From a virus, in the IMG/VR virus record IMGVR_UViG_3300050015_000276, positions 64,001-128,000 of that record: a stretch of 64,000 nucleotides of DNA. One strand, given 5' to 3'. Of the stretch, positions 31,996 to 61,678 are shown piece by piece. Numbering within the stretch: position 1 is the stretch's first letter; each line of letters opens with the position of its first letter. The notes under the pieces are model-generated. The model was not told the DNA's origin. It made no database searches and worked only from the letters and a program-made list of their open reading frames with translations. Position numbers and translations under genes: made by a program.

Positions 31996-32743
31996 ACCGA
32001 TTTCCTTGGCGGCATTGGTGCTGTGCTGTATGTGCTCAGTGTCTCAGGGCGCGATACGCTTTGTGGCGAGTGCTGTCGCACTTCGCTGTTCGCCAGCATT
32101 CTGCACTGCGACCACATCCGGCATCGACACGACCGGCGCGACTTTGCTCGTGGTCGCAGTGCAGCAGTACGCTATGTCTACCACTGGCGGTTATGCGGTT
32201 GTGGTTTCCGATTCCGTCGGCGGGTCCAGTAATACATGGACGGTCCTGACCAACTATGCGTCCAACGGCTCGGAGAACACCACGCTGTTCTACGCGGTTC
32301 CCACGCACACAGGCAGCGGTCACACCTTTAGCGTGTACGGATATTACGCATCGCTTGTCGTGGGGTCGTGGTCTGGAACGCTCGCGGCGTCGCCGCTAGA
32401 CGGCCAGGTTGGCTCGGGTAGTACGGGTGCTGTTGTGTCGTTTCAACCCGGCGCGCTGCTCCCCAGCGAAGACGGAGGCCTAGTTGTTGTGGCGGCCGTG
32501 GCCAATGCGGGGACGGACACTGCGATTGCGGTGGATGGGCCGTTCGCTGACAATCTGTTCGCGGAGGATGAGTCAGGGCAAACGCTAGCCATGTCATACG
32601 AGATTCAGACTACGGCCACATCCCGCAATCCAACTTGGTCCGGCCCAGGTAATTATGTTTATGCAGCAATCTCAGCAGTGTTTAAGCCAGCGGCGGGGGG
32701 CGGCGGGCCTGCGCCGCGCCGGAGGGTGGTGATCGTACAATGA
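31982..32743 (+). CDS. Secreted beta-rich protein (253 aa)
   Basis: MRVSKPISLAALVLCCMCSVSQG|A; IDTTGATLLVVAV..., ends GGGGPAPRRRVVIVQ. Confidence 0.75.
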   Translation: MRVSKPISLAALVLCCMCSVSQGAIRFVASAVALRCSPAFCTATTSGIDTTGATLLVVAVQQYAMSTTGGYAVVVSDSVGGSSNTWTVLTNYASNGSENTTLFYAVPTHTGSGHTFSVYGYYASLVVGSWSGTLAASPLDGQVGSGSTGAVVSFQPGALLPSEDGGLVVVAAVANAGTDTAIAVDGPFADNLFAEDESGQTLAMSYEIQTTATSRNPTWSGPGNYVYAAISAVFKPAAGGGGPAPRRRVVIVQ

Positions 32744-35598: not shown

Positions 35599-35715
35599 CA
35601 AGCGTATGAAGGGATTTATGTTAAGCAAACTTACGATGAGTTGTCAATCCTTATAAAGAGTTAATAAATTAGTATATTAAATTCTTAACTTAAAGTTGGA
35701 CTCATAAATATATTT

Positions 35716-36294
35716 ATGAGTCCAACTTTAAGTGGTATTTATACACGTCAACAAAAAAATGTAAATCCTTTATTACCAAATAAATTTACATTTATGCTCA
35801 CCAAGTTACCAGAATTATCAATGGCAGCTACAAGCTGTAATATTCCTGGTATTACTTTGCCAAATTGGAAACAATTGAGTCAATTTAATCCCATTCCACG
35901 ATCCGGTCTTAATCTTGAATATGAAGATTTAGAAGTCCGGTTCATTGTTGATGAAGATTTCAATAATTGGAGTGAACTTAATAATTGGATGAGATTGATG
36001 GCACTCTCAAAAGATAGTACTGAATATCAACAAGTAAAATTAGAACAATTACAACCTGGTCCTGAAGGTGGATTAGTATCAGATGCCCAAGTTGTTGTTC
36101 TCACTAACCAATCAGTTGCTAATATGGTATTTTACTTTCGTGATGCTTTCCCAGTTTATCTCAGTGAAATAGCTTTAACAAATTCAACAGATGATCCTAG
36201 TGTAATCGAATGTGTTGTACGTTTTGCCTACTCATACTACGAGTTCGAAAATGTTAATCCAGAACCATTAGACCCAACAGAACAGTCCTCATAA
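35716..36294 (+). CDS. gp3: Tail completion/tube-like protein gp3
   Basis: NPLLPNKFTF, SCNIPGITL, LEYEDLEVRFIVDEDFNNWSELNNWM, FRDAFPVYLS; synteny before uvsY. Confidence 0.85.
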   Translation: MSPTLSGIYTRQQKNVNPLLPNKFTFMLTKLPELSMAATSCNIPGITLPNWKQLSQFNPIPRSGLNLEYEDLEVRFIVDEDFNNWSELNNWMRLMALSKDSTEYQQVKLEQLQPGPEGGLVSDAQVVVLTNQSVANMVFYFRDAFPVYLSEIALTNSTDDPSVIECVVRFAYSYYEFENVNPEPLDPTEQSS

Positions 36295-41489: not shown

Positions 41490-41846
41490 ATGACAGTTCC
41501 TACTTTTACCGCATCAATTTTTATTGGTCTCAAACGTGGTTATACTGGTAAGGAGATGACAGTACAAGAAGTTGAAGACTTTTTGCAAGAAAAAGTAGAT
41601 AAAATTGGTTTGTGTGTTTCTATTACACCCACGCGATATGTCTATACTAATGGAAACGAAAATGGTTTAATAATTGGTCTGATAAATTATCCACGTTTTC
41701 CGTCTGATGAATATAAGATCCGTATGTGTGCTCTGGAATTAGCTGGCGATTTAATGTTGTTTTGTAAACAAATGCGTGTTTGTGTTGTATTTCCTGATAA
41801 AACTATTATGCTTTCTAATAGTGAAGAAATTGAAAAAGTAAAATGA
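41490..41846 (+). CDS. Conserved hypothetical phage protein (118 aa)
   Basis: ORF track; coupled to gp47 and gp46. Confidence 0.7.
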   Translation: MTVPTFTASIFIGLKRGYTGKEMTVQEVEDFLQEKVDKIGLCVSITPTRYVYTNGNENGLIIGLINYPRFPSDEYKIRMCALELAGDLMLFCKQMRVCVVFPDKTIMLSNSEEIEKVK

Positions 41847-42061
41847 CAATCTTTAAACGTATAAAGTGGAAGAATTTACTCGGAACTGGTGACCAATTTA
41901 CAGAAATTGACCTTAATAAATCACCAACTACTTTAATTTATGGAACCAACGGAACTGGAAAGTGCCTTGCAAATTCCACAATTGTTAGTATCTTTGAAAG
42001 TGAAGAAAATAAAGCATTTAAAGAATTTAGAAATTTTATTAAAAATAAGTCTCTTTCTTAA
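41843..42061 (+). CDS. gp46: gp46 (Rad50/SbcC-like) N-terminal 40 aa fused to a 32-aa intein N-fragment
   Basis: IFKRIKWKNLLGTG...LIYGTNGTGK|CLANSTIVSI...; break falls inside Walker A. Confidence 0.9.
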   Translation: MTIFKRIKWKNLLGTGDQFTEIDLNKSPTTLIYGTNGTGKCLANSTIVSIFESEENKAFKEFRNFIKNKSLS

Positions 42062-42085
42062 ACCGTTATAAGCATAAATATATGT

Positions 42086-43186
42086 ATGAATTTTAAAAGA
42101 AATCGTACATATGAAGAAAAATTAATTGATGCGTTGGACAATAATATTAAAAATATTGAACCTTCCAAAAGAGAAAATATTTTACAGGAAATGAAAACAA
42201 ATCTCGTAAGTGAAAATGTTATCAAAATACGAAAATATATTGTAGAAAAATATTTTGGAAGTCTACCTGAAAATGGAGCAAACACAGCGATTTATTGGAT
42301 TGCAAGAGGCTGGGAAGAATATACAGCAAAACGAAAATCTTCAGAATTTTTAGCCAAGAAAGGAAAGAGAAAATCACCTTTTCAAGTTTCGTTTTGGTTA
42401 GAAAAAGAAAATCCAAATACAGGTAAAAAGTTTACTGAACAGGAAGCAGAATATAAAGTAAGATCTCAAAGACCAATTAATTCAGAATATTGGATAGAAA
42501 AAGGATATTCTGAAGAGGAATCAATTAAATTAGCTTTAGATAAAAAAGATTCTAACAATAAAAGTGGTGCAAAAGCTAGTAGGAATAGATCTGGATTATC
42601 TATACGAAAAAGCAGTAAACGATGTGCTGAATATTGGATAGAACGAGGTAAGACAAAAGAAGAGGCTATTGAAGAAGTTAAAAAAAGTCAAAGTACTTTT
42701 TCTTTGGAAAAATGTATACTTAAGTTTGGTGAGGAAGAAGGAACTAAAAAGTGGCAAAAAAGACAAGACAAATGGATAAAAACTTTAAATTCTAAACCTC
42801 AAGAAGAAAAAGATAGAATTAATAGATCAAAAGTTGCTTTCGGTGGTATTTCAAAAGCCGAAAAATTTATAATGTCTAAAATAATTGATATTATTCCAGA
42901 ATTGCAAGTTCAATATAATATTGGAAATTATATTTGTGATTTTGTTTTGAACAAAAATGCTGTGGAATATTTTGGAGATTATTGGCATTGTAATCCTAAA
43001 AAATATAAACCAAAATTCATTAATAAAGTTAGTGGTTTGTCTGCTGAAGAAATTTGGGAAAAAGATAAGAAGCGAATAAAAGTTTATGAAGAAAATGGAT
43101 TCACAGTTAAAATTATTTGGGAAGATGACTTTAAAAAAAATCCTGAAAAAATTATATTGGATATTTTAAGTTTTTTGAAATCATAA
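42086..43186 (+). CDS. Free-standing VSR/DUF559-type homing endonuclease between the gp46 halves
   Basis: YWIARG/YWIEKG/YWIERG repeats; YICDF...VEYFGDYWHCNP...KDKKRI...GFTVKIIWE; own late promoter TAAATA 42075-42080. Confidence 0.88.
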   Translation: MNFKRNRTYEEKLIDALDNNIKNIEPSKRENILQEMKTNLVSENVIKIRKYIVEKYFGSLPENGANTAIYWIARGWEEYTAKRKSSEFLAKKGKRKSPFQVSFWLEKENPNTGKKFTEQEAEYKVRSQRPINSEYWIEKGYSEEESIKLALDKKDSNNKSGAKASRNRSGLSIRKSSKRCAEYWIERGKTKEEAIEEVKKSQSTFSLEKCILKFGEEEGTKKWQKRQDKWIKTLNSKPQEEKDRINRSKVAFGGISKAEKFIMSKIIDIIPELQVQYNIGNYICDFVLNKNAVEYFGDYWHCNPKKYKPKFINKVSGLSAEEIWEKDKKRIKVYEENGFTVKIIWEDDFKKNPEKIILDILSFLKS

Positions 43187-43187
43187 A

Positions 43188-45143
43188 ATGATTTGTACAC
43201 TTCAAGATATTTATAACTTTTATAAAGAGTTTCCACAATATAGGGGACAACTTTCGGTTGAAACTCGTTTTGGATATTATCCAATTTTAGCTTGCGAATA
43301 TACGGCATACAATTCAGATGTTTATTTGGTAGAAATAGAAAATAATCATCTACTTTGTTCGCCAGAACATGAATTGTTTGTCAACGATTCATGGAAACAT
43401 GTTAGGGATATTCATTTAGGAGATAATATAAAAACTAAAGATGGTAATGAGAAAGTGAAAATATCCTTACTTCCGCAAAAAATGGATTTAATGGATTTAC
43501 AAGTTGCTGAAGTACATGAATTTTATGCCAATGATATTGTTTCTCATAATTCAACTTTATTGGATGCATTAACATTTGTATTGTTTGGAGTACCCTTTAG
43601 GAATGTTAATATTCCTATGTTAGTAAATGATACTAATGAAAGGGACATGGTTGTTGAGATTGAATTTAATTCTGGAAGAACAAACTATAAAGTCCGACGT
43701 GGATTAAAACCGCGAGTATTTGAAATTTATGCAAATAATGTGATGCTAGACCAGGAGTCTAAGGCAAAGGATTATCAGAAGTATCTTGAACAAAATATCC
43801 TTAAGTTAAATTTGAAATCATTCAAACAGGTTGTGGTACTTGGAAGTGCATCTTTTACACCATTTTTACAATTGTCTGCGGTTGAACGCCGAAATATTAT
43901 TGAAGATCTTTTAGATATTCAGATTTTTTCAGCCATGAATCTTGCACTTAAAGTAAAAGTGGCAGAAATGAAAGAGGAATACATTTCTCTTTCTAATTCT
44001 ATCGAATTACAAACGGAAAAGATTGCGCTTATAAATGCTTATCTTAATAAATTAAAATCGGATAATGTGAATGCTATATCTGATAAGCGTTTAATTATTA
44101 ATGATAATAATCAACAAATAGAAACAATTTCAGATCAGATCAGAGGTATTGAGGAAGAAATTTCAGAGTTATTTACAACAATCGATGATAAGGAAAAAGT
44201 TCAGGGTAGAATTCAAAAATTACAATCTGCGGAAGACAAATTAGAGACCAATAAAATTAAGGTTGTTAAAGAAAAAAAGTTTTATGAAGAAACAAGTAAT
44301 TGCCCAACATGTAAACAAGGTATTGATGATACATTTAAAAATGATATAATATCTCAAAAAACAGTTTTAATAAAAGATATTGAAAAGGCTTTGGTATCTT
44401 TAACAAAAGATCTGAATACTTCAGAGGCTAGGTTAGTTGAGATTTTGGAAATTACAAAAAATATTGAGAACAAAACAAATGAGATTAGACATTTGGAAAG
44501 TACTGTCCGCGCCATCGATTCCTTCATTAATAAAGTCGAAGTTGAGATTGAAGATCTCCAAAAGAATAATGGTAACACGAAAGAACAGGAAACTAAATTA
44601 CAAGATCTTGAAAGTGATATGATTTCTTTGGCATCGGAACGTGATATTTTGATTTCTAGAAAGCATTCATTGGATATTATTTCTGTGTTATTGAAAGATA
44701 CTGGAATTAAGACCAAGATTATTAGACAGTATCTTCCAATCATGAATAAATATGTCAATAGGTATTTGGCCGATATGGATTTCTTTGCCAACTTTGCACT
44801 GGATGAAAATTTTCGAGATACAATTCACATTCGTGGAAGTAAAGAAAGAACCTATTACCAATTAAGTGAAGGACAAAAATTAAGAATTGATTTGGCACTT
44901 TTATTTTGTTGGCGGGATATAGCTAAAATTAAAAATAGTGCAAGTACTAATCTTCTCATAATGGATGAGATATTTGAACGTAGTATGGATGCTACCGGTC
45001 TTGAGGATTTATTAAAAGTAATTCATAGTTTGAGTAGGGATATTAATATTTTTATTCTCAGTCCTCAGGGTGATTTGTTGATTGATAAGTTTATCAATAC
45101 TATTAAGTTTGTAGAAGATCATGGATTTTCCGTGATTGAATGA
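43188..45143 (+). CDS. gp46: Intein C-fragment (121 aa) fused to gp46 remainder
   Basis: LLCSPEH, DLMDLQV, IVSHN|STLLDAL; CPTC zinc hook; LSEGQK signature; LIMDE Walker B. Confidence 0.93.
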   Translation: MICTLQDIYNFYKEFPQYRGQLSVETRFGYYPILACEYTAYNSDVYLVEIENNHLLCSPEHELFVNDSWKHVRDIHLGDNIKTKDGNEKVKISLLPQKMDLMDLQVAEVHEFYANDIVSHNSTLLDALTFVLFGVPFRNVNIPMLVNDTNERDMVVEIEFNSGRTNYKVRRGLKPRVFEIYANNVMLDQESKAKDYQKYLEQNILKLNLKSFKQVVVLGSASFTPFLQLSAVERRNIIEDLLDIQIFSAMNLALKVKVAEMKEEYISLSNSIELQTEKIALINAYLNKLKSDNVNAISDKRLIINDNNQQIETISDQIRGIEEEISELFTTIDDKEKVQGRIQKLQSAEDKLETNKIKVVKEKKFYEETSNCPTCKQGIDDTFKNDIISQKTVLIKDIEKALVSLTKDLNTSEARLVEILEITKNIENKTNEIRHLESTVRAIDSFINKVEVEIEDLQKNNGNTKEQETKLQDLESDMISLASERDILISRKHSLDIISVLLKDTGIKTKIIRQYLPIMNKYVNRYLADMDFFANFALDENFRDTIHIRGSKERTYYQLSEGQKLRIDLALLFCWRDIAKIKNSASTNLLIMDEIFERSMDATGLEDLLKVIHSLSRDINIFILSPQGDLLIDKFINTIKFVEDHGFSVIE

Positions 45144-45151
45144 TATTTAAC

Positions 45152-45180
45152 TTGTTCTCCTTAGAATTTTGTGTTATAAT
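45152..45180 (+). promoter_or_regulatory. Sigma70-type promoter (TTGTTC-17-TATAAT) of the modification cluster
   Basis: Extended -10 TG; ATG 9 nt downstream. Confidence 0.7.
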
Positions 45181-45189
45181 AGTTAATGT

Positions 45190-46149
45190 ATGAATATTTC
45201 TTTGCCCAAATATACTCCAAATAATTATGAAAATTTAATGTCCTCGATAGATCCGATTGATGAATATTTGGGATTTTCACTGAAAATGGGAGATAATTTT
45301 CATCTTGGACCAATTGTTGGCTCGAAGGCGCGCCAATGTTTGCATGTTGTACATTCTAATTTGGAATATATCAAAAATAAATGTAACGGTGGTATTTTAA
45401 CTGCCGCAGGATTGCCATCTCCTCAAACAATGATTGTCTCGGCGGTTGCTAAATATTTTGGTTTAAAATGTGTTATTACGATTCCCAAATACGATAATAC
45501 TAAACGAGATTTTAATCGTATTAATGCTTCAATGGCGCAGAAATTTGGAGCGATTGTATACGGTGTGGGAAATCCAAATCCGGCTGGTCCAGAACATGAT
45601 GCAAAAGAATTATCAAAACAATTAGGATATTTTCAAGTTAAATTTGGTATGACAGGTGATGTTGCAATGCAGCCCGTATCTAATCAAGTTCAAAATATTC
45701 CAGAATATGTTAAAGATATTGTAATTATTAGTGGATCTGGTTTATCGGCATTGAGTGTCCTATTAGGTACAGCAATGTTCGATAATAATATTGAGACTCT
45801 CCATACTGTGTGTTTGAGCAATCATATATTAAAGAATAAAGAAAAGTGGTATGATTCTAATCCACTTTCATGTAAAGTAAAAACTAAGTTACATTTGATT
45901 CCTTCAGATATTAATTATCGAACAGAATATAAATGGAATAAATCTTTCGACTTTGATTTGATTTATGAGAGTAAAGCATTTTTGTGGATGGTTGAGAATT
46001 TTAAGCCTTCGAAGGAAGTTTTGTTTTGGGTTGTTGGAAAAAGATTATATGATTTGACTTTGATTGAGGATATAAACTGGCATATGTCCAATCATGAAAA
46101 AGAGTTAAGAGAAGAACCGACAGATTTTATGGAACAATTTTTCGTATGA
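45190..46149 (+). CDS. PLP-dependent fold-type II enzyme (D-cysteine desulfhydrase/ACC deaminase-like)
   Basis: GSKARQ Schiff-base Lys motif, SPQTMIVS..A...G, SGSGLS, DLIYESK, LFWVVG. Confidence 0.7.
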   Translation: MNISLPKYTPNNYENLMSSIDPIDEYLGFSLKMGDNFHLGPIVGSKARQCLHVVHSNLEYIKNKCNGGILTAAGLPSPQTMIVSAVAKYFGLKCVITIPKYDNTKRDFNRINASMAQKFGAIVYGVGNPNPAGPEHDAKELSKQLGYFQVKFGMTGDVAMQPVSNQVQNIPEYVKDIVIISGSGLSALSVLLGTAMFDNNIETLHTVCLSNHILKNKEKWYDSNPLSCKVKTKLHLIPSDINYRTEYKWNKSFDFDLIYESKAFLWMVENFKPSKEVLFWVVGKRLYDLTLIEDINWHMSNHEKELREEPTDFMEQFFV

Positions 46150-46628
46150 GTTTACTAAGACTAGCAAAAATAGAGGAAGTTCCACAAATACATAAAGAGT
46201 TTCAAAAGTTTGAAAAGAAACAAAAGTTGGAGGGTAAACCTCCAGTATTTGCTTTTATTAGACAAGATTATTTAAAGCGGTGTGTTGCTGATGCAACATT
46301 GTATTTTGATGATGGAATTATTGCCGTATTGAAACAATATAAAGTGAGAACGAAATACGGTAATGAAAAAGGTGAGTGGGGTTTATTGGAACTTTTAAAT
46401 ACTAATTTATCGAATAATTTTACTATATTGAAATTCATGCATAAGTTATTAGATGAAAAGGTTAAAAATAGTAAACTTTATGCTACTATTAGAGATGATA
46501 ATGTAGCGTCAATAAAATTTCATACGGCGTTTGGATATAAACGTACAAAAGATATTATGTGGTCTAATGGTACGTTACCTGGTGGAGTTTATGTTTTTAA
46601 CAATATGAAAGATAAGGATTGGTTTTAA
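46146..46628 (+). CDS. GNAT-family acetyl/acyltransferase
   Basis: IRDDNVASIKFHTAFGY C-terminal GNAT motif. Confidence 0.7.
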   Translation: MSLLRLAKIEEVPQIHKEFQKFEKKQKLEGKPPVFAFIRQDYLKRCVADATLYFDDGIIAVLKQYKVRTKYGNEKGEWGLLELLNTNLSNNFTILKFMHKLLDEKVKNSKLYATIRDDNVASIKFHTAFGYKRTKDIMWSNGTLPGGVYVFNNMKDKDWF

Positions 46629-46631
46629 ATA

Positions 46632-46934
46632 ATGGAAAAAACCTGTGTAGAAACACTTTGTGATATTTATTCGCGGTTTATACCTACCGGACAAGTATAC
46701 GTTGCAACTGCTAACACTAAGATTTTTGGATGTGATACTGTTTTGGATTCTTTTGGATTAGTTTCTTTCCTGGTAGATGTCGAACAGCATTTTAATGATT
46801 TGTATGATGCCAATATTGTTGTGACAGATAGTAAAGCTATGTCACAAAAACATAGTCCTTTCCGTACAATTGATACGTTATCCAAATATATAATTAAATT
46901 GTTGTCAGAAAAAGGTATCGCCAATGTTGTCTGA
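46632..46934 (+). CDS. Acyl carrier protein
   Basis: LDSFGLVSFLVDVEQ (phosphopantetheine Ser40), KAMSQKHSPFRT. Confidence 0.85.
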   Translation: MEKTCVETLCDIYSRFIPTGQVYVATANTKIFGCDTVLDSFGLVSFLVDVEQHFNDLYDANIVVTDSKAMSQKHSPFRTIDTLSKYIIKLLSEKGIANVV

Positions 46935-47628
46935 TTTACCGATTGCTCTTGTTACTGGTAGCAGAACTGGTTTGGGAGAATTCATTGCTAAAGGTCTTGT
47001 TTCCAAAGGTTTTTATGTTGTTGGATGCAGTCGCAATCAACCAAATTGGTCATTGAAAGGATACGAACATATTATTGCTGATGTGAGTGATGAAAATTCT
47101 GTATTAGATTTGATGAAGTATATTAGAGTTGAGTATGGACGTTTGGATGCCACTATTAATAATGCTGGAATAGCTTCCATGAACCATTCATTATTAACAC
47201 CTACGAAAACAGTGGAACATCTTCTTGGTGTAAATGTTTGTGGTACATTTACAGTATGCCGAGAAAGTGCAAAAATTATGCAAAAACAGAAATATGGACG
47301 TATTGTTAATTTTACTACCGTTGCGGTTCCTATGCATATTGAAGGTGAAGCTTTATATGCTGCCAGTAAAAGTGCTGTAGAAACTCTTACTAAAGTATTG
47401 GCATTTGAATTGGGTAGTTATGGTATTACTATTAACGCTGTAGGTCCTACTCCTATTGATACTAATTTAATACTTAATGTTCCTGAATATCGAACAAATC
47501 AGGTTATTCAGAAATTGGCAATTAAACGGATGGGTACGCGCGAGGACGTTTTTAATGTTATTGAGTTTTTTATACGTCCAGAAAGTAGTGCCATTACAGG
47601 GCAAGTTATATATTTGGGTGGGGTATAA
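46924..47628 (+). CDS. Short-chain dehydrogenase, 3-oxoacyl-ACP reductase-like
   Basis: TGSRTGLG, INNAG, YAASK. Confidence 0.9.
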   Translation: MLSDLPIALVTGSRTGLGEFIAKGLVSKGFYVVGCSRNQPNWSLKGYEHIIADVSDENSVLDLMKYIRVEYGRLDATINNAGIASMNHSLLTPTKTVEHLLGVNVCGTFTVCRESAKIMQKQKYGRIVNFTTVAVPMHIEGEALYAASKSAVETLTKVLAFELGSYGITINAVGPTPIDTNLILNVPEYRTNQVIQKLAIKRMGTREDVFNVIEFFIRPESSAITGQVIYLGGV

Positions 47629-48968
47629 TGAATCATCTTGATTGGTTGTTTGATATATTTAAACAAAATGCTGGCCGGACTTTCATGGTTTGGGGTGGCC
47701 TTCCTATTACATATTCAAATTTAATACGTTATATACAATATTATAAAGAGAAATTTATTGAATCTGGAATTAAAGGTGGAAAAGTAATAGCTTTACATGG
47801 GGATTATTCACCTAATAATGTGGCCGCTTTGTTAGCTTTGGTTGATGATGGAAATATTGTAGTTCCTTTAGCATCAATTAAAGAAGAATTTATAGATATT
47901 GCTGAAGTTCAGGCTATTTGTTCTTTTGATGAATATGGAAAAATACAACTTAAGTGGTTTCCTAGAGAAGTACATCACCAACTTAATTTGGATATAATTG
48001 CTAGTGGTAATCCGGGTTTGATTTTGTTTAGTTCAGGATCTACTGGAAAATGTAAAGCGTCAATGCATGATTTTTTGCAAGTATTGAATAAATTTAAAAT
48101 TCCTAGACGACAATTGGTAACATTACCTTTTCTTAAATTTGACCATATGGGAGGAATCAATACACTTTTTGGTGTATTATCAAATGCTGGTACTCTAGTT
48201 CTTAGTTCTAATCGAGATCCAGAATTTGTGTGTTCGGCTATTGAAAAGTATAGAGTTGAATTGTTGCCAACTTCACCTACTTTCCTTAATCTTTTGTTGG
48301 TTTCCGAGGCATATCAGAAATATGATTTATCTTCTCTCAAATTTATTAGTTATGGATCTGAAATGATGCCTCAGGTGACCTTATTACGTATTGCAGAACT
48401 TTTTCCCAATGTTAAGTTATTACAAACTTATGGACTTTCTGAGGTTGGTGTTTTAAGATCAAAGAGTGAGAGTTCCAATTCTTTGTGGCTCAAAGTTGGT
48501 GGTGAAGATTTTCAAACTAAAGTTGAGGATGGAATATTATTCATTAAGGCAAATTCTGCGATGAAAGGATATTTTAATGCTCCTTCTCCTTTTGTTGATG
48601 GTTGGATGAATACTGGCGACCGAGTAGAAGTGAAGGGAGAATATATACGTTTTCTTGGTCGTGATTCAGAAATCATTAATGTTGGTGGACAAAAAGTTTA
48701 TCCGGCAGAAGTTGAAAATGTTTTACTGTCTATGAGTAATGTTTGTGATGTTACCGTTTCGGCTGAATCTAATTTTTTAATGGGTTATATAGTAGTAGCT
48801 CGATTTAATCTAATTGATAATGAAGATTTCTTATCATTTAAATCCAGAGTGAGAGAATATTGTAAGTCGCGTCTTGAGTCATTTAAAATACCAACTCGAA
48901 TAGAGATAGTAGAAAAAGAACTATTTAATAGTCGTTTTAAGAAAATAAGGTTTCAGGAGCAAATGTGA
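47628..48968 (+). CDS. AMP-forming acyl-CoA/acyl-ACP ligase (adenylation enzyme)
   Basis: LFSSGSTGKCK, YGLSE, TGD, GR..EIINVGGQKVYPAEVE, KIP. Confidence 0.92.
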   Translation: MNHLDWLFDIFKQNAGRTFMVWGGLPITYSNLIRYIQYYKEKFIESGIKGGKVIALHGDYSPNNVAALLALVDDGNIVVPLASIKEEFIDIAEVQAICSFDEYGKIQLKWFPREVHHQLNLDIIASGNPGLILFSSGSTGKCKASMHDFLQVLNKFKIPRRQLVTLPFLKFDHMGGINTLFGVLSNAGTLVLSSNRDPEFVCSAIEKYRVELLPTSPTFLNLLLVSEAYQKYDLSSLKFISYGSEMMPQVTLLRIAELFPNVKLLQTYGLSEVGVLRSKSESSNSLWLKVGGEDFQTKVEDGILFIKANSAMKGYFNAPSPFVDGWMNTGDRVEVKGEYIRFLGRDSEIINVGGQKVYPAEVENVLLSMSNVCDVTVSAESNFLMGYIVVARFNLIDNEDFLSFKSRVREYCKSRLESFKIPTRIEIVEKELFNSRFKKIRFQEQM

Positions 48969-50674
48969 ATAACCAACCAAAGTATTATTATGATAGAAAT
49001 TCTTATATTATCGATGATTATAACATTAATAAAACTTTTGAAGAATTGTTGTTAATGTCAGTTACAGAATTTGAAGGGTGGGTTGACCACATGCGTTCAA
49101 GTGTTTTGAAGGTGTGGGATGAAAAAGGAATACCACCTCTTTCTGGAATGACTGAAGATGATATGTCTGAAGAATTCCGTAAAATGAGCGGAACGCCTGG
49201 TAAAACTATTTCATTATATAAACCAAAATCTGGAAGTACTAAGCCATATATTGATGAATTAGATGGTAAGGCTAATGTGATTATCAATGATGGTTATATG
49301 GGAAGTTGTGTAAATCAGTTCTTTCCAACAATGGCCCAGACAAAGATTAATTATCAGACAAAGATTAATGATGAAGGTAGTTTTTCTGGATATGCCGTAT
49401 ATGATCTTTTTGCTAATGATAAATTTCGAAATAGAATGCAAAAGGGATGTCGGAGACATTTTAAACGAGACTCATTCTACCGTTATTCAGCATCTATTCT
49501 CAAAAATAGTAATTTAGGGCTCGTACCAGCAGAAACCGGCAAAGAGTGGGTTCAATTATTTAAAAGAGATTTTGTCCGATTTGTAGATTATGGATATTGG
49601 CTCAATAGAGTAGAACCGACAGAAGAAGGTGAAACTGGTAGCGGATATACAGAAGTTGATGCTTCTAATTTCTTGTGGTTATCTAAAGCCGAGATTTTGG
49701 AATTATATCATTTAGGAATTATTAATGATGAAAATCTTACTAATTTGGTTGATTTGAGATCATATGAATTACTTCCTAAATTTGTTTGTTGGACTCCAGA
49801 ATTGGAATTAGAAAGACATTTGAAAGAGGATGAACAATATCATATTCGATTTTATAAGAAATCAACACGAATATTTCCAATAGGATTTACCGCTTTTAAA
49901 ATAGGTTACATACAAGTTGCAGTTAATTTTCCACCTATGATTGCTAAGTATTTGTATGAAAAATACACAGATAATTGTAAAGGACAGCATGTTATTAATG
50001 TTTACGACCCATCATCCGGATGGGGCGGCCGCATAGCTGGTGCTATGACAGTTCAGGAAGATCGGCATATTAATTATATTGGAACCGATCCGAATACAGA
50101 TAATTTTATTGATGAACTTGGTATTACTCGTTATGAGTATTTGGCACAATTTATTAATCAATCGCTTTCATCAGGATGGGGGTATGAACCTCATACTTAT
50201 GATGTTTATCAATTGGGTTCCGAAGTAATTGGAAAAGATAAGAAATTTAAAAAGTATAAAGGTAAATTAGATTTGGTGTTCACCTCTCCGCCATATTTTA
50301 ATCGTGAAGGTTATTCTGAAGATGAAACTCAATCTTTGAAGAAATTCCCTCAGTATGATGCCTGGCGAGAAGGATTTTTGAAGCCAACGCTGACAACAGC
50401 ATATACTTATTTAAAACCAGACCGGTATCTTTTATGGAATATTGCCGACATTAAAACATCTGAAGGATATTATCCTCTTGAACAAGATAGTAAAGATATT
50501 TTAAAATCTCTGGGAGCCGAATTTGTTGGAGTGGAAAAGATGGTTTTGGCAAATATGCCTGGAACTAATCGGGTAGGTGAAGATGGTAAACCTACATGCA
50601 AAAATTTCTGCAAAGTAAATGGTCGTTGGCATAAAACTGAATTGATTTTTATTTTTAGGAAACCAAAGATATAA
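48965..50674 (+). CDS. Amino-group (N6A/N4C) DNA methyltransferase-like protein with long N-terminal region
   Basis: YDPSSGWGGR, YIGTDPN, VFTSPPYF. Confidence 0.85.
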   Translation: MNNQPKYYYDRNSYIIDDYNINKTFEELLLMSVTEFEGWVDHMRSSVLKVWDEKGIPPLSGMTEDDMSEEFRKMSGTPGKTISLYKPKSGSTKPYIDELDGKANVIINDGYMGSCVNQFFPTMAQTKINYQTKINDEGSFSGYAVYDLFANDKFRNRMQKGCRRHFKRDSFYRYSASILKNSNLGLVPAETGKEWVQLFKRDFVRFVDYGYWLNRVEPTEEGETGSGYTEVDASNFLWLSKAEILELYHLGIINDENLTNLVDLRSYELLPKFVCWTPELELERHLKEDEQYHIRFYKKSTRIFPIGFTAFKIGYIQVAVNFPPMIAKYLYEKYTDNCKGQHVINVYDPSSGWGGRIAGAMTVQEDRHINYIGTDPNTDNFIDELGITRYEYLAQFINQSLSSGWGYEPHTYDVYQLGSEVIGKDKKFKKYKGKLDLVFTSPPYFNREGYSEDETQSLKKFPQYDAWREGFLKPTLTTAYTYLKPDRYLLWNIADIKTSEGYYPLEQDSKDILKSLGAEFVGVEKMVLANMPGTNRVGEDGKPTCKNFCKVNGRWHKTELIFIFRKPKI

Positions 50675-50703
50675 TTGACATCCTAGAATTTTCTTGATAA
50701 AAT
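50675..50703 (+). promoter_or_regulatory. Sigma70-type promoter (TTGACA-17-TAAAAT) of denV-like gene
   Basis: Extended -10 TG; ATG 7 nt downstream. Confidence 0.8.
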
Positions 50704-50710
50704 TGTTATT

Positions 50711-51184
50711 ATGAATATCTTTGTTTTGGATACTGATTTTGAAAAGTGTGCTAATTACATGGTAGATTCTCATGTGGTTAAAATGCCAACAGAACATACG
50801 CAGATTTTGTCCACAGTTTGTAGAGTTAATGGTTTAGATGTTGGAATGAAATCAACGCACCAACATCATCCCTGTACTTTGTGGGCCGGTAAATCTAAAC
50901 AAAATTATATTTGGTTACGTGATCTTACTCTGGTTATTGGTGAAGAATGGTGTACAAGATTTAATCATATTTGTGCGGATGAACATAAGAGTATTGCGGT
51001 ACTTAAAACTCTTCCAATACCAAATCTTCCTAATATTGGGTTGACAGAGCACGCATTGGCCATGCCGGAAGAATATCGGGAGTGTGATCCTGTTAAGGCC
51101 TATCGCAAATATTACATCGGAGCCAAACAGCATTTGGCTAAATGGAAGCACGGGATTACTCCTTCTTGGTATACAACCAAATAA
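50711..51184 (+). CDS. Pyrimidine-dimer DNA glycosylase-like protein (DenV/Pyr_excise family)
   Basis: MNIFVLD...D.HVVKM..E..QILST...HQHHPCTLWAG, AMPEEY...AYRKYY. Confidence 0.8.
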   Translation: MNIFVLDTDFEKCANYMVDSHVVKMPTEHTQILSTVCRVNGLDVGMKSTHQHHPCTLWAGKSKQNYIWLRDLTLVIGEEWCTRFNHICADEHKSIAVLKTLPIPNLPNIGLTEHALAMPEEYRECDPVKAYRKYYIGAKQHLAKWKHGITPSWYTTK

Positions 51185-51238: not shown

Positions 51239-52684
51239 ATGCAAAACCCCTTAGTATCCTGTATAACTGTTACGACCGCAAACCGTAAAGAATTCTTTCC
51301 GCAATTACTTCGTTGTTGGTGGGAACAGACATATCTAAACACGGAACTTGTAATTGTTTCGGAAGATGATATGTCTGATGTTATTCCAGTTCATCCGAGA
51401 ATTCGTTTTATTTCATGTCCATCCGGAACGTCCTTGGGACAAAAACGTAATATTGCATGTGAAAATTCTCAAGGTGAAATTATTGCTCATTTTGATGATG
51501 ATGATTGGAGTGCACCTATCCGAATTGAGGAATGTGTAAAGGCTTTAATTAAACATAAAGTCTTTATTACAGGTTATAGAAATGCTCGTTTCTATGAAGT
51601 TGATACTAAATTAACGCGTGTGTGGGATGGTGGTCCAAATCTTATTATTGGATCGAGTTTAGTATATGCTAAGAATTTTTGGCAAACTCATAAATTTGAA
51701 GATATTCCAACAGGAGAAGATCTTAAGTTTTTAGCATCTTCAGGTTTAATATATGCTATGAATGGTATGGAAAGAATGATTTTCCGAGATCATTCGAACA
51801 ATACGTGGCCACGTGCAGAAAAATATAATAAAGCTTGGAAAATTGTTGATTCTATTGAAACTCAAGAATTGTTATATAGTCAGAAACCTATTAAAATTGT
51901 AATGGGTATGTTGTCTTGGAATGATAAGGAAACAACACTCAATAATCTTGATACTTTATATGCTGAAGCAAAGAGATTACGACAATTTAATTTTGATTCG
52001 GAGGTTGTTGTAGTTGATAATGGATCTACTGATGGTACAAAACAGGCCCTTAGAAAAGTAAAGAATATTCATGTTATATCCAATAAAACTAATTTGGGTA
52101 TTGCGCCGGCTCGTAATCAATTGTTTGAATATGCCAAAGTCTTCGATTCGGAATTTACATTTTCTGTAGATTGTGATATTGCTGTAGTTCCATTTTCAGT
52201 TTTAGAAATGCTACGTTGGTTACGTTTACGGGCGAATATTGCAGCGTGTATTGGAACTGAATGGGATTTATGCACTGAAGATCCAACAAAAGTGGCCACT
52301 TGGTGTCCTACTATTACTATTAATACGCACATTCAACCACATCAGGCACCATTAGGATATGGTTTGTGGTTTACAAATGTTTTGAATCGATATAGATTTG
52401 ATGAACGATTTGGACCTGGTTGGGGTGGGGAAGATAATGATTTAGCATTGACAATTGAGTCTGAAACATATTTGAAAATGTTTGTATTTCCTTTAAAGTA
52501 TTTACATTTACATCCACATAAATCTATAGATTTACTTAAAGTTGATGGTGTGGATCCTGAAAAGGTTGTTCGTGAACGCTACCAAATACTTATTGATAAA
52601 TGGGTAGAAATTCCAGAGTTTAAACCTTTTATTAAAAGGTTAGTGCAATCTAAGAATTTGGAAAGTAATATTTTACCAACATGA
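51239..52684 (+). CDS. Double-domain family 2 glycosyltransferase
   Basis: VSCITVT...RNIAC...IAHFDDDD; second domain VVDNGSTDGT...ARNQ...SVDCD...GGEDND. Confidence 0.88.
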   Translation: MQNPLVSCITVTTANRKEFFPQLLRCWWEQTYLNTELVIVSEDDMSDVIPVHPRIRFISCPSGTSLGQKRNIACENSQGEIIAHFDDDDWSAPIRIEECVKALIKHKVFITGYRNARFYEVDTKLTRVWDGGPNLIIGSSLVYAKNFWQTHKFEDIPTGEDLKFLASSGLIYAMNGMERMIFRDHSNNTWPRAEKYNKAWKIVDSIETQELLYSQKPIKIVMGMLSWNDKETTLNNLDTLYAEAKRLRQFNFDSEVVVVDNGSTDGTKQALRKVKNIHVISNKTNLGIAPARNQLFEYAKVFDSEFTFSVDCDIAVVPFSVLEMLRWLRLRANIAACIGTEWDLCTEDPTKVATWCPTITINTHIQPHQAPLGYGLWFTNVLNRYRFDERFGPGWGGEDNDLALTIESETYLKMFVFPLKYLHLHPHKSIDLLKVDGVDPEKVVRERYQILIDKWVEIPEFKPFIKRLVQSKNLESNILPT

Positions 52685-53397
52685 AACCTATAATTTGGGT
52701 TTATTGGGAAAATAAACCAGGACAGTCTGATCCATTAATAGTTCAGAGATGCAAAGAGATTTTTAGACAATATAAAAATGTAATTATTCTCAATGAAAAT
52801 ACAATTAAAAATTATGTGAATTTGATAGATTGTAGTCATATAAAAATTCTAGCATATAAAGGTGATTATTATCGTGCCAAATTACTTTCTGAATATGGTG
52901 GAATTTGGTTTGATGCTGATTCTATTTTGTTGGATGATTTTAGTGATTTGTATGATCAATTATTAAATAGTGATTTTGAGATGTGCGCAGAGAATTCGGC
53001 CGAAAGTTGTAGTCCATCTTGTTTGTTATTTAAACCTAAAAGTGTTATTGCGAAGAAATGGAGTTTATATTGTGAAGAAATGATACTTGCTGGAAAATGT
53101 ATGGATTTAAATGATTGGGGACAACTTGCTGGATATGCTCTTGCTAGAATTATTAAAGAAACTAATAATAGTGTGATGGAATTTCCTGGAAGATATATGT
53201 TTTCTCTTGGTTACGAAAATAGAATTTTTATGAATTATTATAGTCAAGATGCCAGATATATTAAACAACAATTGCAACAAATTAAAACACAAGGAGCCAA
53301 AGTTATCACATTATATGGTACGTTTATGTATAATCTTATTATACCAAACCAATGCTTATTAGAACAGATGTGGACAATGGCAAAAATAAATGAATAA
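52681..53397 (+). CDS. DXD glycosyltransferase (GT32/capsular polysaccharide synthesis-like)
   Basis: IIWVYWE, DYYRAKLLSEYGGIWFDAD. Confidence 0.85.
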   Translation: MKPIIWVYWENKPGQSDPLIVQRCKEIFRQYKNVIILNENTIKNYVNLIDCSHIKILAYKGDYYRAKLLSEYGGIWFDADSILLDDFSDLYDQLLNSDFEMCAENSAESCSPSCLLFKPKSVIAKKWSLYCEEMILAGKCMDLNDWGQLAGYALARIIKETNNSVMEFPGRYMFSLGYENRIFMNYYSQDARYIKQQLQQIKTQGAKVITLYGTFMYNLIIPNQCLLEQMWTMAKINE

Positions 53398-53961
53398 TAA
53401 CGAAGATGTTTCGGTATCGGGTGTTGGTTCCTCTCGGGCCGCTACTAAAAAATTAGATTAGAAATTCCTGAATTATTAAAAACTTTTAAGGTTAAGACAT
53501 TATTGGATTTACCGTGTGGGGATTATCATTGGATGCAACATGTTAATTTGTACGGTATATTGTATACTGGGGCCGATATAAATGAGGAAAGAATTGTGGA
53601 TAACAAACAAAAGTATCCAGAAATTCACTTTGAAGTATTAGATATTACTTCAGATCCTCTTCCTAAAAGTGATGTTGTTTTGGTGAGAGATTGTTTGGTT
53701 CATTTGGACAATAAGAGTATTTGGAAGACTATCAAAAATCTGAAGAAGAGTGGATCAACATATCTATTAACTACGAATTTTCCAGTCATTATTCATTCTA
53801 CTTTAAATAATAATATTAAAACCGGTGGTTGGCGTCCATTAAATTTTCAATTAAAACCTTTTAATTTTCCAGAACCTATTGGCGTGATTGTAGAGAATTG
53901 TACTGAGGAACCTTGGATTGATAAATCATTGTGCCTTTGGAAAATTGAAAATCTTTCTTGA
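53390..53961 (+). pseudogene. Class I SAM methyltransferase interrupted by a frameshift in an A6 run (53447-53452)
   Basis: Frame A: MNNNEDVSVSGVGSSRAATKK; frame B continues IRLEIPELLKTFKVKTLLDLPCGDYHWM...DVVLVRDCLVHL. Confidence 0.7.
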
Positions 53962-53986
53962 CATTTAATTGTGTTTGTGATATACT
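53958..53986 (+). promoter_or_regulatory. Sigma70-type promoter (TTGACA-17-TATACT)
   Basis: Extended -10 TG; ATG 6 nt downstream. Confidence 0.85.
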
Positions 53987-53992
53987 TTATGT

Positions 53993-54841
53993 ATGGTACC
54001 TTTGAAGAATCGAAATCGAAAGGCGTATTCATTCGCCAATATTAATTTATTGGGAAAATGTAATGCTGATTGTTATTTTTGTCTCGGTAAAGATATTCCT
54101 TCTGAATTGGTCGGAAAGAATCAACTTTCGGTTCATTTTACACAATGGAAGAATTTTAAGAGTTTCTTAACGCAGTGCCGAGATAATGACATTTCGAAAT
54201 TATATTTAACTGGACAAACGGCCGACGGACTTCAATATGTTTACCTAGATGAATTAATTGATTATCTTCAGGATAAATGTGGATTTTCTGTTGGTATTCG
54301 AACGAATGGTTATCTCGCTTTAAAAAGGATGACAACCATTCGTAAGATGAAAGATGAAATCGGGTACAGTATTCACACCCTGAATTGTACTAATAATAAC
54401 CTTATTATGGGTAGACGAGATTTGCCAGAGTGGAATAAGATTATACCACAAAGTGGTGATAATGTACGAGTTGCCATTGTATTGAATCGTTATAATGTTT
54501 TAGAATTTTATTCTCTTTGTGAATATATTTCTCAATTTCCAAATGTTAATTATATTCAGGTTCGCCGGGTTTCAACAGATACTCGAATGGTATTTCTTAA
54601 TGAAGATATTGATATTTTTGAAAAGTTTTACCAATGCTTTATTTCTTACAATAAACCTATCCGCGAATATTATGGTGCTCCTATTTTCAAACTTTTTGGT
54701 AAGGATATTGTATTTTGGAGAACAGTTGAGACTTCAATAAATTCCTTAAACTACTTTACAGACGGAACGTGTTCCGATGAGTATTTTGTGGTAGAAGGAT
54801 ATCTTAAGAATCAGGATGTAAATAATGCAGAAGGCACTTAG
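53993..54841 (+). CDS. Radical SAM protein of unknown specificity
   Basis: CNADCYFC (CxxxCxxC), LTGQTAD, IRTNG. Confidence 0.85.
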   Translation: MVPLKNRNRKAYSFANINLLGKCNADCYFCLGKDIPSELVGKNQLSVHFTQWKNFKSFLTQCRDNDISKLYLTGQTADGLQYVYLDELIDYLQDKCGFSVGIRTNGYLALKRMTTIRKMKDEIGYSIHTLNCTNNNLIMGRRDLPEWNKIIPQSGDNVRVAIVLNRYNVLEFYSLCEYISQFPNVNYIQVRRVSTDTRMVFLNEDIDIFEKFYQCFISYNKPIREYYGAPIFKLFGKDIVFWRTVETSINSLNYFTDGTCSDEYFVVEGYLKNQDVNNAEGT

Positions 54842-55871
54842 TTTTGATGATACACTATTAGTTCCAAAAAGAACATTTGGTGGCAGTCGTGGGCAGGTTG
54901 ATATATCCACAAATATTTGTGGATATAATATGAAAATTCCTATTTTTTCGGCTAATATGTCTTCGGTAACTGAATCAGAAATGGCTATTGCAATGCGGCG
55001 AAATGGTGGCCTTGGAGTTCTTCATCGAATGTGTGATCCTGCCGAAAATATTAAAATGGTGAAAAATGTGTATTTGGGACTTTCAGAAGACGACTATACT
55101 AAAACTCCAGTATTTGTTTCTTTGCCATCTAATGGATTTGATGCTCTCAATAGAATAAAGGATACTCTTGAATTTAAACCTTATGGTTATTGCATAGATG
55201 TAGCACATGCTGATTCTCCTGATGTGGAAGAAACTGTAAAACGAATTATACAAGAATATCCGGAATTAAATTTGATTGTTGGTAATTATGCGACACCCGA
55301 AGGTATTAGAAATCTTATCAATATAATTGATAAAAAAGATCTTTCTAGAGTTGCATTTAAAGTGGGAATTGGTAGCGGAAGCCAATGTTCTACACGTATT
55401 GTTACCGGTTGTGGTATTCCTACATTAGAAAGTATATTTCGAATTAGAAATAATGATTATATACCAAAAGATATTAAATTGATTGCTGATGGTGGAATTC
55501 GTAATTCTGGTGATATTGTAAAAGTTTTGGCCTCTGGCGCGGATGCAGTTATGTTAGGTAGTTTGTTGGCTGGAACTAAAGAGGCTCCCGGTAATGTTAT
55601 TAAAAATTCTGGTGGTCTTTATAAGATTTATAGAGGCAGCGCCTCATATGGACAGAAGTTTGAAGTGGGAAAACAAGGATATATTGAAGGAACAGAAACT
55701 TTAGTGCCATACAAAGGCCATGTTACAACTATTCTTACTCAATTGGTAGAGGGAATCAAATCAGGATTTTCCTATTGTGGTTCCCTTAATCTTGAAGAAT
55801 TGCAAGATAATGCGGAATTTGTCGAAATATCAAATGCTGGATATAGAGAAAGTACACCTCATGGGGTTTAA
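54825..55871 (+). CDS. IMP dehydrogenase/GMP reductase family enzyme (no CBS domains)
   Basis: LSFDDTLLVP, SANMSSV, IDVAH, KVGIGSGSQCSTR, IADGGIRNSGD, YRGSAS, EG, GIKSGFSYCG. Confidence 0.92.
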   Translation: MQKALSFDDTLLVPKRTFGGSRGQVDISTNICGYNMKIPIFSANMSSVTESEMAIAMRRNGGLGVLHRMCDPAENIKMVKNVYLGLSEDDYTKTPVFVSLPSNGFDALNRIKDTLEFKPYGYCIDVAHADSPDVEETVKRIIQEYPELNLIVGNYATPEGIRNLINIIDKKDLSRVAFKVGIGSGSQCSTRIVTGCGIPTLESIFRIRNNDYIPKDIKLIADGGIRNSGDIVKVLASGADAVMLGSLLAGTKEAPGNVIKNSGGLYKIYRGSASYGQKFEVGKQGYIEGTETLVPYKGHVTTILTQLVEGIKSGFSYCGSLNLEELQDNAEFVEISNAGYRESTPHGV

Positions 55872-61602: not shown

Positions 61603-61678
61603 GGGGATGTCTGCCAACTGGTAAAGCAAGCGGACCTTCAATCCATTAATCCGAGTTCGAGTCTCGGCGTCCCTACCA
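61603..61678 (+). tRNA. tRNA with UUC anticodon (Glu), non-canonical C33, encoded CCA
   Basis: GGGGATG/CGTCCCT acceptor, D loop with GG, anticodon loop CC-TTC-AA, T arm CCGAG-TTCGAGT-CTCGG, ACCA end. Confidence 0.8.

Follow-up and report, generated by a model that had tools for sequence, protein, structure and literature searches.

A six-gene unit of an uncultured T4-like phage as a candidate pathway for carrier-protein-dependent acylation of DNA bases

An uncultured T4-like phage from soil, represented by a complete 179,687-bp record of IMG/VR with direct terminal repeats (IMGVR_UViG_3300050015_000276), carries a compact unit of six genes (g1 to g6). These encode a pyridoxal phosphate (PLP) enzyme, a GNAT-fold acyltransferase, a predicted carrier protein, a short-chain dehydrogenase/reductase (SDR), an adenylating ligase, and a methyltransferase-like protein. 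The unit lies within the stretch of 64,000 nucleotides analyzed here (bases 64001-128000 of the record, hereafter the window). We propose that the six genes form one pathway that ends on the phage's own DNA, a reading to which we assign a probability of about 0.45. The pathway most likely puts an acylated group, larger than a methyl group, on DNA bases; we infer the DNA target and the exact chemistry. Comparisons with other phages and with bacteria suggest that the conserved core of the unit is g6 together with g1 and/or g2, and not the trio of carrier protein, SDR, and ligase (g3-g5).

All six open reading frames (ORFs) are on the + strand, and neighboring genes overlap or abut. The overlaps are 4 nt between g1 and g2, 11 nt between g3 and g4, 1 nt between g4 and g5, and 4 nt between g5 and g6, and a gap of 3 nt separates g2 from g3. 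A sequence-only reading of the window had described these genes as one packed unit, which is what we found, and its gene identities also hold: strong Pfam matches support g4 and g5, profile comparisons support g1, g2, and g6, and an LDS motif and a bacterial orthologue support g3.

Core genes of the unit

The methyltransferase-like protein g6 (48965..50674, + strand, 569 aa) consists of a conserved N-terminal region of ~300 aa followed by a class I domain that binds S-adenosylmethionine (SAM). It matches Pfam N6_N4_Mtase with an E value of 1e-6 (29.2 bits vs. the 26.7-bit cut-off). In an alignment of 41 sequences, motif I (D348-P-S-S-G-W-G-G-R356), which is the SAM motif, and the SPPY motif IV (S441-P-P-Y444) are invariant or nearly so. 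In the structural model of g6 (pLDDT 86.6), the C-terminal part adopts a class I fold of the amino-methyltransferase type. Foldseek returned generic class I methyltransferases only. By Z score, the fold is nearest to methyltransferases of exocyclic amines, with Trm11, TrmN, and Trm14 first (Z 15-15.6), followed by METTL5 and PrmC (overall Z 13-15.6). A sequence search with the full-length g6 profile did not reach any solved structure.

Homologues of g6 number more than 2000, and in 39 IMG/VR loci such a gene lies directly after gp47-gp46. The slot between gp46 and the g6 homologue holds a PLP-enzyme gene of the PALP family (243-320 aa) in 15 of these loci, a GNAT gene in four, and PALP, GNAT, and acyl carrier protein (ACP) genes together in one; the other 19 have none of the three, and most of these gaps are empty. 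A scan seeded independently with the GNAT motif yielded 35 loci, and the GNAT gene abuts or overlaps a methyltransferase-like gene in 30 of them. Across ~70 viral contigs, the constant partner of g1 is a g6-type gene. The same three families also occur as natural fusions or adjacent pairs. Gp1 of Erythrobacter phage vB_EliS_R6L is a fusion of methyltransferase-like protein and PALP, and Microcystis phage Mae-JY30 has the two as adjacent genes, in this order, after a ParB-like gene. Fusions of methyltransferase-like protein and GNAT were found in P0242, P0283, and P0321, the last of which adjoins a ParB-N6_N4 DNA methylase, and P0335 is a GNAT-x-PALP fusion. Since the order of domains in the methyltransferase-GNAT fusions is the reverse of the gene order in T4-like phages, they are not mis-called or merged adjacent ORFs. 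For the additional domains of two GNAT fusions, P0249 and P0335, sequence searches gave no solved relatives.

Further tailoring-type genes were seen next to PALP and methyltransferase-like genes in relatives, namely a glutamine-synthetase-like ligase, a RimK-type ATP-grasp enzyme, and a second, small canonical N6_N4 methylase (L043:6165-7987; L002:3192-4094; L022:6447-7109). One or two 2-oxoglutarate oxygenases resembling Asp/Asn hydroxylases precede the GNAT gene at L077:5795-6963 and L071:2909-4320 (short methyltransferase-like gene of ~360 aa), and L077 also has a peptide deformylase. Two proteins encoded beside g1 homologues (L001:7119-7997, 292 aa; L004:752-2446, 564 aa) match no known family, apart from a very weak DpdB-like hit of the 292-aa protein (E 0.006).

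The identity of g1 (45190..46149, + strand, 319 aa) as a fold-type II PLP enzyme comes from profile searches, its PALP match in Pfam being weak. The g1-family profile matched cysteine synthase and 1-aminocyclopropane-1-carboxylate (ACC) deaminase in PDB (E 4e-8 to 1e-6), as well as D-cysteine desulfhydrase, and residue K46, invariant in 13 homologues, aligns with the PLP lysine of cysteine synthase. The same profile aligned end to end with gp52 of Pseudomonas phage M6 in hhalign (Prob 99.1%, E 2e-18, ~260 columns), placing K46 on K36 of gp52, a residue named in PMC8989533. A profile built from g1-type sequences only gave 97.5% and E 8e-12, and g1 also has the gp52-specific C-terminal motifs YD/E-x-KAW and FWxVG. 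It should be noted that g1 matches phrog_3650 (E 2e-18) and not phrog_7093, the family of gp52, although gp52 itself matches phrog_3650 weakly. The 243-aa PALP partners of g6 homologues do fall in phrog_7093 (E 2e-43). While g1 had no tblastn match among GenBank phages, the short PALP partners had matches in Bordetella phages CN1, CN2, FP1, LK3, and MW2. In CN2, the only one of these inspected, the PALP gene is part of a cluster encoding an amino acid:DNA transferase (ADDT), PALP, a radical SAM protein, a kinase, and a dUMP hydroxymethylase, that is, a thymidine hypermodification locus of the M6 type.

Gp52 of M6 and gp226 of ViI decarboxylate amino acids attached to thymine in DNA (Lee et al.; PMC8989533). 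By its homology, g1 is predicted to decarboxylate or otherwise trim an amino-acid-like group carried by a polymer. Neither an ADDT nor a thymidylate-synthase-like hydroxymethylase is encoded in the phage genome, so the known route that supplies the substrate of gp52 is absent, and another installer would be needed if g1 acts on a polymer-bound amino acid. Because the constant partner of g1 is folded like a SAM-binding amino-transferase, and an alpha-amino acid is part of SAM itself, a SAM-derived amino acid would be the simplest source of this substrate. This is the basis of the mechanism proposed below.

For g2 (46146..46628, + strand, 160 aa), the match to Pfam Acetyltransf_4 (E 3e-4) is under the curated cut-off, and the g2-family profile matched only N-acetyltransferases in PDB (best E 1.6e-4). 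GNATs normally bind the pyrophosphate of coenzyme A (CoA) at the glycine-rich loop of motif A (Q/R-x-x-G-x-G/A). At this position g2 reads LSNNF and has no glycine-rich loop. In the GNAT alignment, the G-x-G loop is present in none of six GNATs encoded beside an ACP gene, compared with 25 of 28 family members without an ACP neighbor. This loss would fit a donor other than CoA. The six ACP-linked GNATs, g2 among them, form one clade with 100/99 support and the topology ((L006,L095),(L001,(L055,(L044,window)))).

Carrier modules and their origin

The predicted carrier protein g3 (46632..46934, + strand, 100 aa) has no match in Pfam, NCBIfam, or PHROG. Its assignment comes from its LDS motif and its identity to a gene of a bacterial cassette. 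L38-D39-S40 is invariant in six homologues, S40 is the predicted phosphopantetheine site, and in the structural model (pLDDT 76) helix 40-58, which corresponds to helix II, begins at S40. The g3 profile matched only carrier proteins in PDB, DltC and ACP-like proteins, weakly (E 0.018-0.6), and the top Foldseek rows of the model were ACPs (TM 0.53-0.68) with E values of at least 0.87, which are not significant. The product of g4 (46924..47628, + strand, 234 aa) matches Pfam adh_short_C2 (E 1e-42) and carries the cofactor motif TGSRTGLG (TGxxxGxG) and the catalytic motif YAASK (YxxxK). It matches TIGR01830 with E 3e-45, but its 155 bits are below the 298-bit FabG equivalog cut-off, which makes it an SDR of the FabG kind and not FabG itself. 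The third member, g5 (47628..48968, + strand, 446 aa), is an adenylating ligase of the ANL superfamily with an AMP-binding domain (PF00501, E 5e-30), the C-terminal domain PF13193 (E 6e-5), and an SSGSTGKCK motif. It is predicted to load an acid onto g3; no specific solved relative that would allow its substrate to be assigned was found. The sequence-only reading had noted that the window lacks a phosphopantetheinyl transferase (PPTase), and no PPTase (PF01648) is encoded in the complete 179.7-kb genome either, so phosphopantetheinylation of g3 would need the host's enzyme.

These three genes have close counterparts in bacteria. The g5 protein is 55-65% identical to a large family distributed across many bacteria. 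Among the phages of the GenBank collection, its matches were only host-like contigs with 20-27% identity, and IMG/VR searches with the g5 ligase, the ACP profile, and a single FkbH sequence gave no new relatives. A conserved bacterial block, present in Acidobacteria (e.g., GCA_016185425.1) and on three other bacterial contigs, encodes a ~285-aa protein, a ~100-aa protein, an SDR, and a ligase, with the ligase always downstream of ACP-SDR in the bacteria examined. The phage trio has the same gene order and is 43-48% (g3), 64-70% (g4), and 59% (g5) identical to this block. Its bacterial neighbors include GT2, GT87, PMT_2, methyltransferase, and DegT sugar-aminotransferase genes, confirming the earlier statement that such trios occur in bacterial glycan loci.

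The 285-aa protein of the bacterial cassette shows a weak match to WecD/RffC-like sugar N-acyltransferases. Since an N-acyltransferase of this kind precedes the bacterial trio, the native job of the trio is probably to supply acyl groups to it, by loading an acid, reducing it, and passing it on for transfer. The tetronate module RfbKLMNO of Vibrio cholerae O1 appears comparable in logic. No paper characterizing the bacterial cassette itself was found. These orthologies show that g3-g5 were acquired as one block from a bacterial cassette for the N-acylation of amino sugars. The bacterial acyltransferase did not come with the supply genes, which now directly follow the phage's own viral GNAT gene; a link of g2 with the 285-aa acyltransferase was rejected (hhalign Prob 0.1%). 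The phage unit thus shares the load-reduce-transfer logic of the bacterial cassette but uses a viral GNAT, and its neighbors are DNA-metabolism and methyltransferase-like genes, with no sugar aminotransferase.

The same six-gene array was found only in a sibling phage (L044-L046, 70-86% identity) from soil metagenomes (PRJEB10725). The sequence-only reading had named a lack of association between the trio and the PLP, GNAT, and methyltransferase genes in relatives as a refutation of its proposal; this association holds in one sibling lineage only, other relatives have FkbH plus ACP, and most have no carrier module. L055, whose g6 homologue is 76% identical, has the order gp46, ACP, FkbH, TylF-like O-methyltransferase, methyltransferase-like protein, PALP, and GNAT. 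L006 has ACP, FkbH, GNAT, an 87-aa ORF, PALP, a nucleotidase, and the methyltransferase-like protein. L001 has an ACP-FkbH fusion followed by GNAT, a 292-aa protein, and PALP, and L095 has ACP, FkbH, and GNAT. The FkbH domains of L055, L006, and L001 exceed the TIGR01686 cut-off. The 87-aa ORF of L006 was considered as a carrier protein and rejected; the ACP of that locus lies upstream of FkbH. These four loci resemble the loading of glyceryl-ACP by FkbH and ACP in methoxymalonyl-ACP pathways, with the difference that these phages have no polyketide synthase context.

In the GNAT tree, the pair with the ligase-type module (L044 and the window) is nested inside the FkbH-type members, which indicates that the loader changed from FkbH to the bacterial cassette of ligase and SDR in the lineage of the window while the GNAT subfamily stayed with carrier proteins. 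The retention of one GNAT subclade with two unrelated carrier modules is the strongest evidence that g3-g5 serve g2.

Proposed pathway and competing explanations

In the pathway that we propose, g6 would draw on SAM to modify a base of phage DNA at its exocyclic amino group with a group that carries an amine, for which the 3-amino-3-carboxypropyl end of SAM is the simplest candidate. Next, g1 would trim this base-bound group; most likely it would remove the carboxyl group and leave an aminopropyl arm, by analogy with the action of gp52 on glycinyl-thymine. Meanwhile, g5 would adenylate a small oxo- or hydroxy-acid and load it onto holo-g3, and g4 would reduce the keto group of the acid on g3. 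Finally, g2 would cap the free amine with the hydroxyacyl group, taking it from acyl-ACP and not from acyl-CoA. In this scheme, g3-g5 would have replaced the FkbH and ACP (glyceryl-ACP) loader used by the nearest relatives, and the likely role of the modification would be to protect phage DNA from host nucleases. Spelled out to this level, with transfer of the aminocarboxypropyl group to a DNA base by g6, decarboxylation on DNA by g1, and addition of a carrier-borne hydroxyacyl group by g2, the scheme is unlikely to be right in every step.

Individual steps have precedents. Phage Mu Mom, a GNAT-fold enzyme that modifies the N6 position of adenine, is a precedent for a GNAT acting on a DNA base. 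TYW2, Tsr3, and TapT show that enzymes with methyltransferase-like folds can transfer the amino-acid end of SAM. Both resemblances are mechanistic only: Pfam and PHROG searches gave no sequence link to Mom, and the known aminocarboxypropyl transferases act on RNA. The closest biological parallel is the thymidine hypermodification of phages M6, ViI, and PaMx11, in which an amino-acid-derived group is built on a DNA base after replication (Lee et al. 2018, 2021; PMC5889632, PMC8989533). In PaMx11, the GNAT gp48 acetylates an amine on DNA (PMC8989533). The unit described here shares with these systems a homologue of gp52 and gp226 and a GNAT that would act on an exposed amine. It differs in that the phage has no dUMP hydroxymethylase, 5-hydroxymethyldeoxyuridine (5-hmdU) kinase, or amino acid:DNA transferase, in that the installer would be a SAM-dependent protein of amino-methyltransferase fold, and in that the donor would be a carrier protein instead of acetyl-CoA. 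The sequence-only reading had named DNA bases, a glycan made by the downstream glycosyltransferases, and a virion protein as possible acceptors of the GNAT; of these, DNA bases are the best supported. It had also held that no phage pathway of this form was described, and our literature searches likewise found no paper on a module of methyltransferase-like protein, PLP enzyme, and GNAT, on carrier-protein-dependent modification of nucleic acids, or on aminocarboxypropyl modification of DNA in phages.

Several observations weigh against a single pathway on DNA. Judging from the model, the closest structural neighbors of g6 work on RNA or protein, and they include tRNA N2-guanine methyltransferases. 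No alignment column separates the solo methyltransferase-like proteins from the partnered ones, which means that the whole family either installs one and the same non-methyl group or methylates while the partners act elsewhere; g6 may simply methylate. The methyltransferase-seeded loci without a partner gene make up 19 of 39. The slot after gp46 is an insertion hotspot that also holds homing endonucleases and a peptide deformylase, so some of the gene adjacency could be incidental. ACP genes and loss of the GNAT loop became associated only once in evolution, and this counts statistically as one origin and one swap. A specific kinship of g2 with PaMx11 gp48 was rejected (Prob 19%). In addition, the target and the transferred group are both ones that we infer.

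Part of this evidence would be expected if the unit were an assembly of separate modules gathered in the insertion hotspot. In that case, g6 would be an orphan DNA N6-adenine or N4-cytosine methyltransferase, and g2-g5, with or without g1, would N-acylate an amino sugar, which the downstream glycosyltransferases would use on a virion protein, the host surface, or a glycosylated base. The bacterial homologues of the trio indeed serve glycans, in a cassette that carries its own WecD-like sugar N-acyltransferase; the best NCBIfam match of g2, though weak, is the sugar N-acetyltransferase PseH; and each of the three closest ACP-bearing phages (window, L044, and L055) has a GT2 gene in the vicinity of the cassette. 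The partnerless half of the g6 homologues, which share the same core, and the varied contents of the slot point the same way. Nevertheless, we consider separate modules rather unlikely. The phage GNAT differs from the bacterial acyltransferase and comes from a viral family whose members are fused to or overlap the methyltransferase-like gene. L006 has ACP, FkbH, GNAT, PALP, and the methyltransferase-like gene with no GT2, and no sugar aminotransferase or nucleotidyltransferase gene was found in the phage region. Furthermore, denV and a strong promoter-like site separate the six genes from the glycosyltransferases, which also speaks against the earlier suggestion that the acyl group goes onto a glycan made by these enzymes.

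Alternatively, the same pathway could act on RNA (a tRNA or rRNA base) or on a protein amide. The fold neighbors of g6 fit such targets, since Trm11, TrmN, and Trm14 make m2G in tRNA, METTL5 makes m6A in rRNA, and PrmC modifies protein glutamine. To our knowledge, transfer of the aminocarboxypropyl group of SAM has so far been found only on RNA and protein (TYW2, Tsr3, TapT). In L095 (2470-13667), the ACP, FkbH, and GNAT genes lie among genes for an RNA ligase, RlaP (RNA repair polymerase-beta family), and a Ro60/TROVE-vWA protein, with no methyltransferase-like or PALP gene within 7 kb, and this RNA-repair setting also counts against DNA as the target. By sequence, however, g6 belongs to the DNA N6_N4 methylase family, its relatives are fused or adjacent to DNA-binding ParB domains, it is located in a replication and recombination block, and the sole characterized relatives of g1 act on DNA. 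We regard an RNA or protein substrate as improbable.

The sequence-only reading had assigned g1 a different role, in which it deaminates an amino acid to a 2-oxo acid that g5 loads onto g3, g4 reduces, and g2 transfers, while g6 only methylates. Gene order permits this, and the fold family of g1 includes ACC deaminase, D-cysteine desulfhydrase, and threonine/serine dehydratases, all of which make 2-oxo acids. However, g1 is a full-length homologue of the decarboxylase gp52 and shares its specific C-terminal motifs. Homologues of g1 adjoin the methyltransferase-like gene in at least 15 loci without ligase, SDR, or ACP, and a g1 homologue is fused to the methyltransferase-like protein in R6L. 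The bacterial cassette works without a PALP gene, and the FkbH-type relatives require no oxo acid. A deaminating g1 that feeds the ligase is therefore highly improbable, and we favor the reading in which g1 and g6 act together on DNA.

Boundaries, surroundings, and implications of the unit

A candidate sigma70-type promoter precedes g1 at 45152..45180 (+ strand; TTGTTC, 17-nt spacer, extended -10 TGtTATAAT). The sequence-only reading had taken this site as the promoter of the unit. Its extended -10 element (45172-45180) is indeed perfect, but its -35 element matches only three of six positions, for which reason the site is absent from the list of the promoter scan, and promoter-like sites in the region are not more common than in shuffled sequences (36 vs. 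33.4). The site sits 10 nt from the ATG of g1, so a transcript that starts there would be nearly leaderless. In the sibling phage L044, g1 starts 5 nt after a 70-aa ORF, which leaves no space for a promoter and implies that the block may also be transcribed by read-through from gp46. A promoter at 45152-45180 is thus only plausible.

The best promoter-like site of the region lies directly after the stop codon of g6, at 50675..50703 (+ strand; TTGACA, 17-nt spacer, TAAAAT, TG), and matches 11 of 12 consensus positions in addition to the TG. It closes the six-gene unit and starts the next one with denV (50711-51184). A promoter motif shared by the g1 and denV sites was considered and rejected, as it failed at the same spacing.

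The block is flanked by UvsW, gp47, an interrupted gp46 (SbcC-like), and DenV. The UvsW of this phage is ~47-49% identical to those of the nearest cultured phages, which are Pelagibacter, Methylophilales, and Synechococcus myoviruses, and the block with its flank had no nucleotide match among GenBank phages. The interruption of gp46 is at 41843-45143 of the window: the match of the C-terminal piece (651 aa) to gp46 begins only at residue ~120, and directly upstream of this piece lies an ORF of 366 aa for a DUF559/Vsr-like endonuclease. In the sibling phage L044, gp46 is intact (570 aa). Downstream of denV, at 51239-55871, the window encodes a GT2 protein with two domains (481 aa), a Caps_synth-like glycosyltransferase, a methyltransferase-like ORF of 152 aa, a radical SAM protein that weakly matches viperin/MoaA-like proteins, and a GMP reductase/IMPDH-family protein. 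Elsewhere, a block of 55-62% GC at 30001-36000 stands out from the phage's GC content of ~30-35% and contains three long ORFs (843, 253, and 952 aa) without Pfam matches. One tRNA-Glu gene (anticodon TTC) is located at 61603-61678.

The phage DNA hypermodifications known so far build on hydroxymethyl-pyrimidines, 7-deazaguanines, or Mom-type chemistry. If our reading is true, this unit would represent a different entry point to DNA hypermodification, through a SAM-using amino-methyltransferase fold. The fully spelled-out scheme, if it held, would also be the first carrier-protein-dependent modification of nucleic acids and the first case of aminocarboxypropyl chemistry on DNA. Should g6 do no more than methylate, the unit would instead be an ordinary orphan methylase next to a captured glycan-acylation cassette. 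The family is thousands strong in uncultured T4-like phages of soil, freshwater, and marine environments, and its tailoring set is modular, comprising the PLP enzyme, the GNAT, hydroxylases, and, in this phage, acyl supply by a carrier protein. The swap from FkbH to ligase and SDR shows that phages and bacterial glycan loci exchange cassettes for acyl donors, and such exchange would make the adduct more diverse. If pathways of this kind are confirmed, they would offer new DNA chemistries, anti-restriction strategies, and enzymes for the site-specific functionalization of DNA.

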